From a virus (taxonomy: Duplodnaviria > Heunggongvirae > Uroviricota > Caudoviricetes), in IMG/VR virus record IMGVR_UViG_2713896773_000011: a stretch of 5,898 nucleotides of DNA. One strand, written 5' to 3'. The notes below the pieces were generated by a model, which ran no database searches, was not told the origin of the DNA, and saw only the letters and a program-made list of their open reading frames with translations. Within the stretch, counting starts at the first letter, position 1. Each line of letters starts with the position of its first letter. Positions 901-4,974 of this stretch are shown here, piece after piece. A program made the position numbers and the translations under genes.

Positions 901-1842
901 ATGAGCACTAAATTAACCGGCTATGTATGGGATGGTTGCGCAGCGTCAGGCATGAAATTATCCAGCGTGGCAATTATGGCACGCCTGGCTGATTTCAGTA
1001 ATGACGAAGGTGTGTGCTGGCCATCAATTGAAACCATTGCCCGCCAGATTGGCGCGGGGATGAGTACCGTCAGAACGGCTATCGCACGGCTGGAAGCAGA
1101 AGGCTGGTTAACGCGTAAGGCGCGTCGCCAGGGTAACCGCAATGCGTCGAATGTTTATCAGCTTAACGTTGCGAAGCTTCAGGCTGCGGCTTTTTCTCAA
1201 CTGTCAGATTCTGACCCGTCAAAATCTGACGCATCAAAATCTGACCCGTCAAAATTTGATGCGTCGAAATCTGGCAAAAAAGCGGGTTTTCACCCGTCAG
1301 AATCTGGCGGGGATCCGTCAGTAAAATCAAAACATGATCCGTCAGATAAAAAAACTTCTCGTCCGGACGCTTCGCAACCGGACACGCAGAAGGCTGAACA
1401 GGATTTTTTAACTCGCCATCCTGATGCGGTTGTATTCAGCCCTAAAAAGCGCCAGTGGGGGACGCAGGATGATTTGACCTGCGCACAGTGGCTCTGGAAA
1501 AAAATCATCGCCCTGTACGAGCATGCCGCCGAATGTGACGGCGAGGTGGTTCGTCCCAAAGAACCGAACTGGACAGCCTGGGCAAACGAAATTCGCCTGA
1601 TGTGTGTGCAGGATGGTCGTACTCATAAACAAATCTGCGAGATGTACAGCCGCGTCAGCCGCGATCCGTTCTGGTGCCGTAACGTGCTCAGCCCGTCGAA
1701 GCTGCGGGAAAAATGGGATGAGCTTTCCCTGCGCTTATCGCCGTCCGTCAGCACGTACACCGAAAAACGCGAAGACCCGTACTTCAAAGCCAGTTACGAC
1801 AACGTGGACTACAGCCAGATCCCGGCAGGATTCAGGGGGTGA
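901..1842 (+). CDS. Phage replication initiation protein (N-terminal winged-HTH DNA-binding domain, repeat-encoded linker, C-terminal DnaT/primosome-like domain)
   Basis: 313-aa ORF with GAGG 6 nt upstream of ATG 901. The N-terminus (SSVAIMARLADFSNDEGVCWPSIETIARQIGAGMSTVRTAIARLEAEGWL) is typical of HTH replication initiators. The central linker is encoded by tandem 15-bp repeats. The C-terminal region resembles phage replication/primosomal proteins. Confidence 0.85.
   Translation: MSTKLTGYVWDGCAASGMKLSSVAIMARLADFSNDEGVCWPSIETIARQIGAGMSTVRTAIARLEAEGWLTRKARRQGNRNASNVYQLNVAKLQAAAFSQLSDSDPSKSDASKSDPSKFDASKSGKKAGFHPSESGGDPSVKSKHDPSDKKTSRPDASQPDTQKAEQDFLTRHPDAVVFSPKKRQWGTQDDLTCAQWLWKKIIALYEHAAECDGEVVRPKEPNWTAWANEIRLMCVQDGRTHKQICEMYSRVSRDPFWCRNVLSPSKLREKWDELSLRLSPSVSTYTEKREDPYFKASYDNVDYSQIPAGFRG
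1201..1353. repeat. Iteron-like array of 15-bp direct repeats (consensus about CCGTCAAAATCTGAC) inside the replication gene; putative origin of replication
   Basis: Five contiguous in-phase 15-bp units at 1201-1215, 1216-1230, 1231-1245, 1246-1260 and 1261-1275, then degenerate copies starting at 1294, 1315 and 1339, followed by an A7 tract at 1347-1353. They encode DPSKS/DASKS pentapeptide repeats. The arrangement is analogous to lambda ori lying inside gene O. Confidence 0.6.
1834..1839 (+). promoter_or_regulatory. Shine-Dalgarno (AGGGGG) for the PerC-like gene
   Basis: AGGGGG ends 5 nt before ATG 1845. Confidence 0.5.
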
Positions 1843-1844
1843 TC

Positions 1845-2333
1845 ATGAGTCTGTTAAATGACGTTCAGAAATTCATTGAAGCCCATCCGGGGTGTACTTC
1901 CGGAGACATTGCGGATGCTTTTACAGGTTACTCACGGCAGCGCGTTCTGCAGTCAGCAAGCAAGTTACGTCAGAGTGGGCGTGTGGCTCACCGTTGTGAA
2001 GGGGATGCACGCAGACATTTCCCGCGCCAGACAAAGATATCGCCGGAGGCGGAACGGCAACCAGTTCGTGAAACCAGACCTGTGCGCAATTTCTATGTCG
2101 GCACTAACGACCCGCGGGTGATTTTGTGCCTGGCCCGCCAGGCGGAAGAACTGGAGTCCAGGGGCTTATTTCGTCGTGCTGCAACCGTGTGGATGGCGGC
2201 ATTCCGTGAAAGCCACTCCCAGCCAGAACGAAACAATTTTCTGGCACGTCGTGAGCGGTGCTTACGGAAAAGCAGCAAGCGCGCTGCATCGGGTGAAGAG
2301 TGGTATCTGTCAGGGAATTACGTGGGGGCTTAA
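1845..2333 (+). CDS. PerC-family-like transcriptional regulator with an N-terminal winged-helix-like region
   Basis: ORF with ATG 1845 preceded by AGGGGG; the six-frame track starts at GTG 1839. The C-terminal segment LESRGLFRRAATVWMAAF matches the recalled PerC/Pch hallmark (LE..GL.RRAA..W). The stop TAA 2331-2333 overlaps ATG 2333 of the next gene. Confidence 0.55.
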   Translation: MSLLNDVQKFIEAHPGCTSGDIADAFTGYSRQRVLQSASKLRQSGRVAHRCEGDARRHFPRQTKISPEAERQPVRETRPVRNFYVGTNDPRVILCLARQAEELESRGLFRRAATVWMAAFRESHSQPERNNFLARRERCLRKSSKRAASGEEWYLSGNYVGA

Positions 2334-2986
2334 TGAGTAATAAATATTGCCGGGCGCTGGTGGAACTGCGGAACAAACCAGCCCATGAACTGAAGGAAGT
2401 GGGCGATCAGTGGCGCACGCCGGACAACATTTTCTGGGGAATTAACACCCTGTTTGGCCCGTTTGTTCTGGATCTGTTCACTGATGGTGATAACGCTAAA
2501 TGTGCCGCTTATTACACTGCGGAAGACAACGCGCTGGCGCATGACTGGTCAGAACGTCTTGCGGAGCTTAAAGGTGCTGCCTTTGGTAATCCCCCATACA
2601 GCCGCGCCAGTCAGCATGAGGGGCAATACATCACCGGCATGCGTTACATCATGAAACATGCCAGTGCCATGCGTGATAAAGGCGGGCGCTATGTTTTCCT
2701 GATCAAAGCTGCCACCAGCGAAGTGTGGTGGCCGGAAGATGCAGACCATATTGCTTTTATTCGCGGGCGTATTGGTTTTGAACTGCCAGCCTGGTTTATC
2801 CCGAAGGACGAGAAGCAGGTGCCGACAGGAGCTTTCTTCGCTGGTGCTATTGCTGTTTTCGACAAGACCTGGAAGGGACCGGCAATCAGCTACATCGGGC
2901 GCGATGAACTTGAGGCATGTGGTGAGGCGTTTCTGGCGCAGGTTCGCCAGCAGGCGGAAAAACTGGTCAGGGAGATGGCGGCATGA
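2333..2986 (+). CDS. Phage orphan DNA N6-adenine methyltransferase (Dam family)
   Basis: The FGNPPYS motif (catalytic NPPY of N6-adenine methyltransferases) is present along with conserved phage-Dam-like blocks (WRTPDNIFWGINTLFGPFVLDLFTDGDN; RYVFLIKAATSEVWWPED). ATG 2333 overlaps the upstream stop in a TAATG arrangement. The track ORF begins earlier at GTG 2300, but ATG 2333 is the more likely start. Confidence 0.88.
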   Translation: MSNKYCRALVELRNKPAHELKEVGDQWRTPDNIFWGINTLFGPFVLDLFTDGDNAKCAAYYTAEDNALAHDWSERLAELKGAAFGNPPYSRASQHEGQYITGMRYIMKHASAMRDKGGRYVFLIKAATSEVWWPEDADHIAFIRGRIGFELPAWFIPKDEKQVPTGAFFAGAIAVFDKTWKGPAISYIGRDELEACGEAFLAQVRQQAEKLVREMAA

Positions 2987-3093
2987 CGACGTTAACTCAA
3001 TGCCAGCAGCAGGTGCTGGATATGCTGATTTCTTATCAGAAAGAGCGTGGCTTTCCGCCAACCAATCAGGAGGTGGCAACCATGCTGGGATAA
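2983..3093 (+). CDS. 36-aa mini-ORF resembling the N-terminal part of the LexA DNA-binding domain (helices 1-2 only)
   Basis: MTTLTQCQQQVLDMLISYQKERGFPPTNQEVATMLG aligns by eye with the LexA N-terminus ([34 protein letters not shown]) and stops before the recognition helix. ATG 2983 overlaps the Dam stop (ATGA). Confidence 0.4.
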   Translation: MTTLTQCQQQVLDMLISYQKERGFPPTNQEVATMLG

Positions 3094-3098
3094 CCAGC

Positions 3099-3422
3099 AT
3101 GCAAAACAGCAGATCGCACTGGGGTCACAGAGAACCCAGGAAGATATCAAAATGGCTGTTGCGGATGATGATTGTGCTTCACGTGCTGTGCCTGCTGCCG
3201 CTGCTGACCGGTTGCGGAAGTACGCGGACAGTTTACGTGAGCGTTCCGGTGGCACCACTGCCACCCAGCCTGACTTCTGATACTCCTGTACCGTTTATAC
3301 CTAATCCGCTGACGTATGGTGCCAGTCTGGAGCTGAATGTGAGTCTGTTGTCTGCGCTGGCTAACTGCAATCGGGATAAAGCTGATATTCGTAAAATAGA
3401 TGCAGAGAGAACTAACCATTAA
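3099..3422 (+). CDS. Lipoprotein (signal peptide with lipobox LLTG|C; Pro-rich mature region with a second Cys); function unknown, o-spanin-like or exclusion-type
   Basis: Frame open from 2739, but the plausible start is ATG 3099 (alternative ATG 3165). It has a positively charged n-region, a hydrophobic stretch (MMIVLHVLCLLPLLTGC), Gly at +2, a proline-rich segment (VPVAPLPPSLTSDTPVPFIPNP) and a downstream Cys. Confidence 0.6.
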   Translation: MQNSRSHWGHREPRKISKWLLRMMIVLHVLCLLPLLTGCGSTRTVYVSVPVAPLPPSLTSDTPVPFIPNPLTYGASLELNVSLLSALANCNRDKADIRKIDAERTNH

Positions 3423-3443
3423 GCAATAAAATTGTCAAATTAA

Positions 3444-4070
3444 TCAGTTGTCAAATGAATATACGTTAAAGGTATATGTCGACATAATTTCACCAAGTAC
3501 CTCAATACATACACTTTTTTTATGAAAATTACTGGGAAATGAACTTAGCTCCTCAAGACATTGCACATAAGTGCTGATATCACTTGCATCACGTTCAAGG
3601 AATTTCACTTGACCAAAAGAAGGAGTTTTAATCTTGGTTCTTTGCTGGATTATATGGATAAAGTGTGTAGTTGGTGAAACTATTACTCTTGAAATATCGG
3701 AAATGATGTCTTCTTGAACTTGCCGATAAAGTAAATCCTTTGGGTAATGGTGTTTAATCTCGATGGTTGCAACATTGCCATTATGTTCAGACGTTAATAT
3801 CGACTGGTTATAAAGTGATATGTCAACAGCGCCGATACCGAGTTTTGGATGCTCACTTAAAGCAGTTAGTGTGCTGATTTGATTGAGTATAACAACTAAC
3901 TCATCACGTATTTGTGTTTCATGTTTGCGATTGTAGAAGTAGCCATTCAGTTCATTTAACTTTTTATGCATCCTATCGTGACTAATTGCTTCGATCAGTA
4001 AATCCTGAATCATACTTTTCTCTAGGTAATCCGAACGGTTGTAAGTGACAGTATTGTGCTGGCATGTCAT
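3444..4070 (-). CDS. Hypothetical protein (208 aa) with a possible PD-(D/E)xK nuclease-like signature
   Basis: Long ORF in AT-rich DNA, second gene of a minus-strand pair. Candidate motif residues are D56/E57 (RDELVV), D83 (GIGAVDISL) and E104-I-K106 (ATIEIKHH). No good SD precedes ATG 4070; an internal ATG (Met20, about 4013) follows a purine-rich stretch. Confidence 0.6.
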   Translation of the reverse strand: MTCQHNTVTYNRSDYLEKSMIQDLLIEAISHDRMHKKLNELNGYFYNRKHETQIRDELVVILNQISTLTALSEHPKLGIGAVDISLYNQSILTSEHNGNVATIEIKHHYPKDLLYRQVQEDIISDISRVIVSPTTHFIHIIQQRTKIKTPSFGQVKFLERDASDISTYVQCLEELSSFPSNFHKKSVCIEVLGEIMSTYTFNVYSFDN

Positions 4071-4113
4071 TAATATGTAAAGGTATTGTGAATGCCAGAA
4101 AGATAACGAAGTA

Positions 4114-4449
4114 TCATCGATAGAAAAACTTTACAGCCCACTCGTAAACAGCTTTGTAAATCGGTTCATGGTAAATACTATCGATACTATTCAGATGTGC
4201 GATCATCGCCTCCACAGTTGTAGTGGTTGTTTCTAATATTTCGATTATTGCAGGGCGGTCATCATCTTCATCGAAGTATTCGAACAGCAGTACAGGTTTA
4301 CCATGCAATTCAGCATCTGAGACTCTAAGGTTACAACTACCGCTCAACTCAAAGTGAATTTTGTAATTACCTTCTACAGAATGGCCTACGGGGAAAAAGT
4401 ATAGGGTGTCATCTTTGTTCAAAAGCCATTCCCATTCATAACTATTCAT
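4114..4449 (-). CDS. Hypothetical small acidic protein (111 aa from ATG 4449; 117 aa if ATG 4467)
   Basis: First gene of the minus-strand pair. A strong SD (AGGAG, plus-strand coordinates 4457-4461) sits 7 nt upstream of ATG 4449. It contains an acidic run (FEYFDEDDDRP) and a Thr5 tract. I recognise no family. Confidence 0.6.
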   Translation of the reverse strand: MNSYEWEWLLNKDDTLYFFPVGHSVEGNYKIHFELSGSCNLRVSDAELHGKPVLLFEYFDEDDDRPAIIEILETTTTTVEAMIAHLNSIDSIYHEPIYKAVYEWAVKFFYR

Positions 4450-4456
4450 TTGTGAA

Positions 4457-4461
4457 CTCCT
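4457..4461 (-). promoter_or_regulatory. Shine-Dalgarno (AGGAG) for the small minus-strand gene
   Basis: Minus-strand sequence reads ATGAACAGGAGTTCACAAATG; AGGAG is 7 nt upstream of the second ATG. Confidence 0.6.
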
Positions 4462-4536
4462 GTTCATTGAGTTTCAACAACTATCAACTACATCCAGCGA
4501 AGCATAAAAGATCGTTTATGGCAAAACCGGAATGGA

Positions 4537-4974
4537 GTGCGATTCGATTCTGAGAAGGGTGCCACGTACCGACACTGGATGGGAACGGGGACTGTCGGTG
4601 TGATGATTGCCGGCAGTGACCTGATTAATCCCATTCCGGAAGAATCAACGGAAACGGCGGCAAGACAACATATCGGGCCACTGGCCCCGGTGGCAGGCTC
4701 TGATTTGTATGTATTCAGGCCGGTGGCGCATAAAGTGGATTTTCATATCCGTGTGACGCCGGACACACCGGAAATACGGGCTGCCATCACCGCCGAGTTG
4801 CGTTCGTTCCTGCTGCGTGATGGTTATCCGCAGGGAGAACTGAAGGTGTCACGTATCAGTGAAGCGATTTCCGGTGCGAACGGGGAATACAGCCATCAGT
4901 TGCTTGCACCGGCGGACAATATCTCCATTGCAAAAAATGAACTGGCGGTACTGGGGACGATTTCATGGACGTGA
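4537..4974 (+). pseudogene. Baseplate assembly protein J-like (P2 gpJ / Mu gp47 family), C-terminal fragment only
   Basis: About 145 codons ending ...AVLGTISWT, against roughly 300 aa expected for J-family proteins. The frame is open back to 4471 with no ATG and no SD, starting at the edge of the low-GC segment. It is followed by an I-like gene and a tail fiber gene in the canonical J-I-H order. Similar to the e14 jayE remnant by recall. Confidence 0.65.

Follow-up and report, generated by a model that had tools for sequence, protein, structure and literature searches.

We analysed a 5,898-nucleotide stretch of caudoviricete virus DNA (IMG/VR record IMGVR_UViG_2713896773_000011; hereafter the window, meaning the whole stretch), which carries at positions 3423-4510 a two-gene block of low guanine-plus-cytosine (GC) content whose larger gene probably encodes a small nuclease. 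Base composition places a trough of 0.34-0.40 GC at about 3300-4500 against 0.49-0.61 in the rest of the window; the block itself is 34-40% GC between flanks of 50-57%, and its genes reach 0.35-0.39 against about 0.53. Two tandem open reading frames (ORFs) within this trough are the sole credible minus-strand genes of the window, every other credible gene lying on the plus strand. An earlier note on this DNA, made from the sequence alone, had picked out the same roughly 1.1-kb segment for its sharply lower GC, its minus-strand genes and its foreign, cargo-like character, all of which hold up; its reading of the two genes as one defence or toxin-antitoxin-like module does not. The ORFs as called mechanically, and the gene models adopted here, with sizes in amino acids (aa) and nucleotides (nt), are as follows.

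3444-4070, minus strand: large ORF as called mechanically, 208 aa, opening at ATG 4070
3444..4013, minus strand: predicted nuclease gene with corrected start, 189 aa, conserved start ATG 4013
4014..4113, minus strand: spacer between the two cargo genes, 100 nt
4114-4467, minus strand: small ORF as called mechanically, 117 aa, opening at ATG 4467
4114..4449, minus strand: gene of the small acidic protein with corrected start, 111 aa, start ATG 4449

The start of the large gene was set at ATG 4013 because MIQDLL is the N-terminus in all homologs of the protein and because the RefSeq annotation gives a 189-aa product, whereas the start of the small gene is preceded by AGGAG 7 nt upstream of ATG 4449. 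Of the sizes first proposed, 111-117 aa for the small protein is thus retained at its lower end and 208 aa for the large one is not, and the corrected starts widen the intergenic gap from the 43 bp reported earlier to 100 bp. This spacer carries a sigma-70-like match (TTTACA-17 nt-CACAAT at 4081-4053), a candidate promoter from which the nuclease gene would be transcribed separately. The reading frame is kept in homologs of both proteins at 50-75% identity, nonsynonymous divergence (dN) is 0.17-0.46 with synonymous divergence (dS) saturated, and dN/dS is 0.11-0.17 where computable, a pattern of substitution that marks both ORFs as real genes under purifying selection. No flanking repeats pointing to transposition were found around the block, and an Rfam search gave zero matches.

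The 189-aa protein belongs to a sparse family. A single-sequence search recovered 27 clusters among 5.8 billion proteins and a profile search 42 representatives among 1.84 billion, while a broader profile reached 128 clusters, mainly from Bacteroidota and Acinetobacter, one of which bears the UniRef name 'Restriction endonuclease'. The protein is a full-length member of phrog_12494 (function unassigned) and has zero matches in Pfam, NCBIfam, PADLOC and PDB sequences. The earlier statement that neither protein matches a family is therefore true of these four collections, but both are full-length members of PHROG families. Lone distant members of the family match HSDR_N (1.4e-4) and SduA (1e-5), with PDDEXK_9, DpnII-MboI and REase_II matched weakly; the SduA match, to the PADLOC model (E 1e-5), concerns 1 of 34 family members. 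Across a 34-member alignment reaching down to 19% identity, exactly five residues are invariant (K30, E32, D64, E85 and K87), and N28, R36, E54, P56, D93, D106 and Y180 are nearly so.

Minus strand, predicted catalytic codons: K30 3926-3924; E32 3920-3918; D64 3824-3822; E85 3761-3759; K87 3755-3753

Structure prediction, which had been suggested as a check, yielded a confident AlphaFold2 model (predicted local distance difference test score (pLDDT) 84, predicted template modelling score (pTM) 0.85) with a restriction-endonuclease fold and an intact motif. The model contains the alpha-beta-beta-beta-alpha-beta core that defines the PD-(D/E)xK superfamily, with the D...(D/E)-x-K motif on beta-2 and beta-3: E32 is helical, D64 opens the second core strand and E85-I-K87 belongs to the third, so that E32, D64 and E85-x-K87 take up the canonical PD-(D/E)xK arrangement. 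Its nearest structural matches are type II restriction enzymes; Foldseek searches against the PDB and BFVD gave no significant match. On the basis of the model and the invariant residues, we consider it likely that the 189-aa protein is a small stand-alone PD-(D/E)xK nuclease, and we infer its activity from the predicted fold. A subgroup of homologs of about 310 aa (P0128, P0132, P0134, P0138, P0148 and P0166, from Acinetobacter and metagenomes, together with L111) combines the nuclease domain with an extra region that in most members matches DUF6508 (PF20118), which suggests that the nuclease core can gain an additional domain.

Far less can be said of the 111-aa protein. It is acidic, as the earlier note had it, with an isoelectric point of 4.56 and 20 D/E against 8 K/R, and it is a full-length member of phrog_14397 (function unassigned); a search with the protein gave only 15 related clusters. 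Searches of Pfam, NCBIfam, PADLOC and PDB sequences returned zero usable matches, and the AlphaFold2 model is unreliable (pLDDT 53) and too poor for a fold search. PDB profile searches with alignments of both protein families produced a single marginal match, a non-significant one of the small protein (E 0.08, residues 47-109) to the CPR-C4 protease, a vasohibin-like cysteine protease (PDB 7ob6). A striking local stretch of that alignment pairs YHEPIYKAVYEWA with YRDPIYKSVRELA, and there is no conserved cysteine.

To establish how the two genes are associated, loci were gathered from assemblies and IMG/VR for each protein, and the presence of the partner was scored by tblastn. Adjacency of the two was confined to loci at which each gene matches the window at 94% identity or more, all belonging to a single shallow E. 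coli cassette lineage. The small gene is absent beside all of the roughly 30 diverged nuclease loci (50-71% identity), which come from Enterobacter, Yersinia, Citrobacter-like and Pectobacterium-like prophages, and the nuclease gene is likewise absent beside all 15 diverged small-gene loci (58-74% identity). At two loci (L039 and L040) the nuclease gene is 96% identical, yet the small gene is missing. At L070-L072, at L057 and in several complete genomes, among them E. coli NZ_CP189657, NZ_CP182220 and NZ_CP100954, an intact small gene adjoins the remnant of a nuclease gene, of which just the first 38 or 118 codons survive; the nuclease gene has thus undergone repeated loss at loci that retained its neighbour. 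Furthermore, the small gene turns up without the nuclease gene both in this slot in other prophages and in a chromosomal islet of Pectobacterium, for which reason we regard it as independent cargo.

What lies upstream of the nuclease gene differs from host to host. Lone nuclease genes are preceded by an unrelated 75-aa ORF in Enterobacter and by no ORF in Yersinia, Tamlana and many IMG/VR loci, and at others the upstream sequence translates like non-coding DNA. Bacteroidota do have tightly coupled small upstream ORFs, of at least four families without relation to one another; among them are DUF6150, a beta-flower-like repeat protein and a protein whose hydrophobic C-terminal segment looks as if it spans the membrane, and the E. 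coli 111-aa protein has no relative in any of them. We accordingly rejected the idea of a conserved partner encoded upstream of the nuclease, the upstream sequences being either non-coding-like or drawn from unrelated families, and no nuclease paralog was found among neighbouring genes. The comparisons of loci indicate that the E. coli pair is two independent cargo genes stacked in one slot. The toxin-antitoxin-like module proposed in the earlier note thus loses its footing, since co-occurrence is limited to a single cassette and the linked pair is not conserved across genomes, the outcome that the note itself had named as telling against it. In the Enterobacter prophages (L002-L006 and L069), the upstream ORF is a conserved one of 72-77 aa (MGNVKIYAGLVNGD...) about 90 nt from the nuclease gene; it is rich in beta-strand-favouring residues, has zero Pfam matches and shows no relation to the E. 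coli 111-aa protein.

The slot itself is variable. A megablast search of 5426 complete E. coli genomes with positions 3300-4650 as query (at least 80% covered) found the cassette in 73, although the flanks of the same segment match 1361, in line with the variable cargo site that the earlier note had suspected. When either gene is scored alone, the counts are 75 and 79 genomes (about 80 of 5426, or about 1.5% of complete genomes). Where a diverged homolog of either gene stands alone in Enterobacter, Yersinia and metagenomic prophages, which differ in their terminases and lysis genes, it too lies antisense in the lysis-terminase slot, and the flanks of the nuclease gene vary by host between a P27-type HNH/TerS module, Terminase_2 and ParB/Mom. 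Comparison of these prophages identifies the lysis-packaging junction of lambdoid and P27-like prophages as a cargo hotspot. The genes have the traits by which morons are recognized: they lie between conserved modules, are missing from close relatives, differ in GC and run opposite to the late operon, and the match in the spacer is a candidate for a separate promoter. Neither protein has a tblastn match among 50,697 GenBank phage records.

An intact relative, the prophage of E. coli strain T16R (L001), explains how the block came to its present surroundings. There, Q, holin, endolysin, Rz-like and Rz1 (lysC) genes are followed by the opposite-strand 189-aa and 111-aa genes and then by an HNH endonuclease, a P27-family small terminase, a large terminase and the portal onward. 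Positions 953-3092 of the window align with 1-2140 of L001 (the early region), and positions 3088-4568 with 8789-10269 (the Rz C-terminus, Rz1 and the cargo block). The features bordering the cargo genes are the following.

3088..3092, no strand: left deletion junction, where the end of the early region is joined to the middle of the Rz-like gene
3165..3422, plus strand: intact Rz1-like outer-membrane spanin gene (lysC), with the lipobox LLTGC in its translation
4450..4568, minus strand: remaining sequence upstream of the small gene, the alignment to the intact prophage stopping at 4568

The left deletion removed about 6.6 kb (L001 2141-8788), starting just past the N6-adenine methyltransferase gene and ending within the Rz-like gene, and its junction shows 2-5 nt of microhomology. 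The right deletion, which in intact-phage coordinates begins about 30 nt upstream of the HNH endonuclease gene, fused the sequence preceding the small gene, at 4568/4569, to a baseplate J-like gene of which the C-terminal part remains. The window is therefore a decayed prophage in which two deletions left the block between early genes and a baseplate fragment. The block had been taken to replace the lysis, terminase, head and tail genes, but the two deletions flank an ordinary cargo slot, and the intact Rz1-like gene is still adjacent. The lysC and nuclease genes are convergent, with stop codons 21 nt apart, and lysC marks the lysis-side border of the slot. The exact doubly deleted layout is absent from the 5426 complete E. 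coli genomes, in which the best match covers 64% of the window. In the anatomy of the block and the independence of its two genes we have high confidence.

Several further features of the decayed prophage were seen. The lysC gene is now an orphan, its Rz partner being truncated and the holin and endolysin genes deleted. The N6-adenine methyltransferase gene (2300-2986) is kept in the window, and the 350-aa methyltransferase gene, which lies upstream of the holin gene in intact relatives, is deleted from it. Within the O-like replication/helix-turn-helix gene (901-1842), a 15-bp unit, TCTGACCCGTCAAAA, is present in 4.3 tandem copies at 1210-1273; the repeats encode DPSKSDASKS repeats, and the array resembles the origin iterons inside the initiator gene of lambda.

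Beyond prophages, the distant homologs of the nuclease are often found near defence genes. In Tamlana (L013/L117) the homolog lies between KwaA/KwaB and HsdM/HsdS, just upstream of hsdM-hsdS, with Fic also present; in Chryseobacterium it adjoins DarT/Macro, and in Tenuifilum it is near the HEPN protein AbiU2. At two Gillisia loci (L136 5980-8210 and L137 5983-8210) the stop codon of the homolog overlaps or abuts the start of hsdM, with hsdS next, and at the one examined for it (L136) Abi_2 follows downstream; no hsdR was seen in the examined flanks of the Gillisia and Tamlana loci. In a neighbour census covering 27 loci and 125 ORFs, WYL regulators were counted six times, SLOG/YspA five times, Fic/SoFic twice and McrBC once, along with several PADLOC candidate families, all of these being raw counts. 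Taken together, the neighbourhoods are suggestive of a partial association of distant homologs with defence genes. In Capnocytophaga (L133, L135, L140, L145 and L150) the homolog is preceded by arrays of paralogs of about 90-570 aa, which have no match among the most frequent Pfam families of the census, a context unlike both the prophage and the defence-island settings.

The explanation we favour, to which we assign a probability of about 0.5, is that the two genes are separate morons and that the 189-aa nuclease is made in the lysogen, without a methyltransferase, possibly against incoming phages. Each gene has been acquired independently into the lysis-packaging cargo slot of lambdoid and P27-like prophages and, both being antisense to the late operon, is probably read from its own promoter in the lysogen. 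The product of the larger gene would be a minimal stand-alone Mg2+-dependent endonuclease with an active site formed by D64 on beta-2 and E85-x-K87 on beta-3, assisted by K30 and E32 on the preceding helix. It would most likely cut the DNA of superinfecting phages or other incoming elements, and self and non-self would be told apart without cognate methylation, for example by phage-specific DNA modification, DNA structure or an activation signal. The 111-aa protein is unrelated, a chance neighbour of the nuclease in one E. coli lineage. As no linked methyltransferase is present in any host examined, the nuclease is not a classical type II restriction enzyme, and as its gene is tolerated alone in many genomes, it is not an unregulated toxin.

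The part of this explanation that concerns anti-phage defence is tentative, and we rate it somewhat below an even chance. The anti-phage role suggested in the earlier note remains plausible for the larger gene, given its fold, its motif, its antisense position in a cargo slot and its distant homologs in defence islands, and does not extend to a two-gene system. Several observations weigh against it, or against the explanation as a whole. A scan for promoters and terminators gave matches at chance level, with no enrichment over shuffled sequence, and we infer expression of the nuclease gene in the lysogen from its orientation. The nuclease has no PADLOC model match, the sparing of host DNA by such an enzyme needs explaining, and several distant homologs sit in housekeeping contexts (immediately downstream of dnaE, or in Acinetobacter surrounded by genes of metabolism). 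The papers that were searched by accession and PHROG identifier hold no mention of either protein, and neither do the DefensePredictor and Vassallo 2022 supplements, searched by accession.

We consider it less likely than not that the 189-aa protein founds a new single-gene defence family, minimal and free of a methyltransferase, with a so-far undescribed mechanism of self/non-self discrimination and common to Enterobacterales cargo slots and to Bacteroidota defence islands and type I restriction-modification (R-M) operons. The 111-aa protein would in that event be independent defence or anti-defence cargo, such as a DNA mimic.

Among the alternatives, the nuclease might be the restriction subunit of a split type II R-M system whose methyltransferase lies elsewhere in the prophage, either the N6-adenine enzyme encoded at 2300-2986 or the 350-aa one. 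Its structural resemblance to type II restriction enzymes fits such a role, as do the two DNA methyltransferases of the intact E. coli prophage, of which the N6-adenine enzyme is kept in the window, and the D12-class methyltransferase that a Yersinia prophage carries along with Mom. We nevertheless judge it improbable: the 350-aa methyltransferase has been deleted here, yet the nuclease gene is intact and its protein identical to the intact-prophage copy; no methyltransferase gene is adjacent in E. coli, Enterobacter or Yersinia, and the Enterobacter prophages have none within 6 kb on either side. Most distant homologs also lack an adjacent methyltransferase, and the exceptions are in type I R-M operons, whose HsdM and HsdS serve a different enzyme class.

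There is a similarly small chance that the gene is a free-standing selfish homing endonuclease, which would spread by cutting the empty lysis-terminase junction and bring its host no benefit. PD-(D/E)xK homing endonucleases exist, and a small, low-GC, patchily distributed gene that takes an equivalent intergenic position despite differing flanking genes is what such an element would look like. However, the flanking sequences differ between hosts, with no common target site evident, expression of an antisense gene during lytic co-infection would be awkward, and the distant homologs belong to defence islands of the chromosome and to type I R-M operons, not to phages.

No better placed is the proposal that the nuclease serves the lytic cycle, in recombination, junction resolution, host-DNA breakdown or counter-defence: its gene is missing from most related prophages and from all 50,697 GenBank phage records, runs antisense to the late operon and has homologs in non-phage chromosomal contexts, and RusA is already encoded by the intact phage.

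Very improbable, finally, is a single operon, toxin-antitoxin-like or a two-component defence system, in which the acidic protein neutralizes or regulates the nuclease; the almost constant same-strand adjacency in E. coli (73 genomes with both genes, 75 and 79 with each), the immunity- or antitoxin-like layout of a small acidic protein encoded upstream and the coupled upstream ORFs of several Bacteroidota homologs would suit it, but the adjacency is confined to one cassette at 94% identity or more, the diverged homologs are solitary, with lone nuclease genes maintained by purifying selection in many genomes, L039 and L040 lack the small gene, no ORF lies upstream in Yersinia, Tamlana and many IMG/VR loci, the small upstream ORFs of other taxa come from at least four unrelated families, and a 100-nt spacer with a promoter-like site parts the two genes.

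With two separate morons as the favoured explanation, comparison with known systems shows where the nuclease resembles them and where it departs. It shares its fold with type II restriction enzymes of the EcoRV-like branch (R.SwaI, BglI, EcoRV, MspI, NlaIV and HincII) at only 13% sequence identity; it lacks a sequence-level match to any restriction-enzyme family, has no adjacent methyltransferase gene and has survived the loss of the nearest prophage methyltransferase. The Tai/Ati locus of phi80 (orf63/orf64) occupies the slot between Rz/Rz1 and the cos/packaging module (PMC11364771). The likeness extends to the slot, to an antisense gene of about 200 aa and to the cargo logic of lysogen expression, but Tai acts by blocking tail assembly, not as a nuclease, and Ati lies on the late-operon strand whereas both window genes are antisense. 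Homology to TaiEcA (phi80 orf63) was rejected (BLASTP E 24, hhalign probability 0.8%), as was homology of the window proteins to phi80 orf65.

SNIPE is a nuclease defence that separates self from non-self without methylation (PMC13190303), and by analogy it offers a conceptual precedent only for our reading of the nuclease. Type IV restriction enzymes, Shedu SduA and SNIPE are, like the window nuclease, single nuclease genes without a cognate methyltransferase that are carried in defence islands or mobile elements. The window nuclease matches none of their models, PADLOC SduA/DUF4263 included, and has no extra sensing, modification-reading or membrane domain, its 189 aa comprising little beyond the catalytic core. 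Shedu proteins are about twice that length, and SNIPE is membrane-bound with a different nuclease domain. The genes of the anticodon nuclease PrrC and of RloA-C are embedded in type I R-M operons, an arrangement resembled by that of the Tamlana homolog and the two Gillisia homologs immediately upstream of hsdM-hsdS; this likeness is limited to Bacteroidota relatives at about 25-30% identity and does not include the E. coli gene.

The locus also holds some cautions for the annotation of prophages. Adjacency in one species does not count as evidence that two genes work together, unrelated cargo collects side by side in the lysis-packaging slot of lambdoid prophages, and prophage decay can mimic the replacement of structural genes by a cargo slot. 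Should the defence reading prove wrong, these would be merely two more prophage genes without an assigned function. What makes the larger gene of interest is its place in an unnamed family of predicted minimal PD-(D/E)xK nucleases with members in the cargo slots of prophages and in defence islands, a candidate for single-gene defence whose gene is short and easily cloned. If the protein does restrict phages, it would be among the smallest stand-alone defence nucleases known, and it would provide a tractable model of how a core-only PD-(D/E)xK enzyme avoids its own host without a partner methyltransferase.

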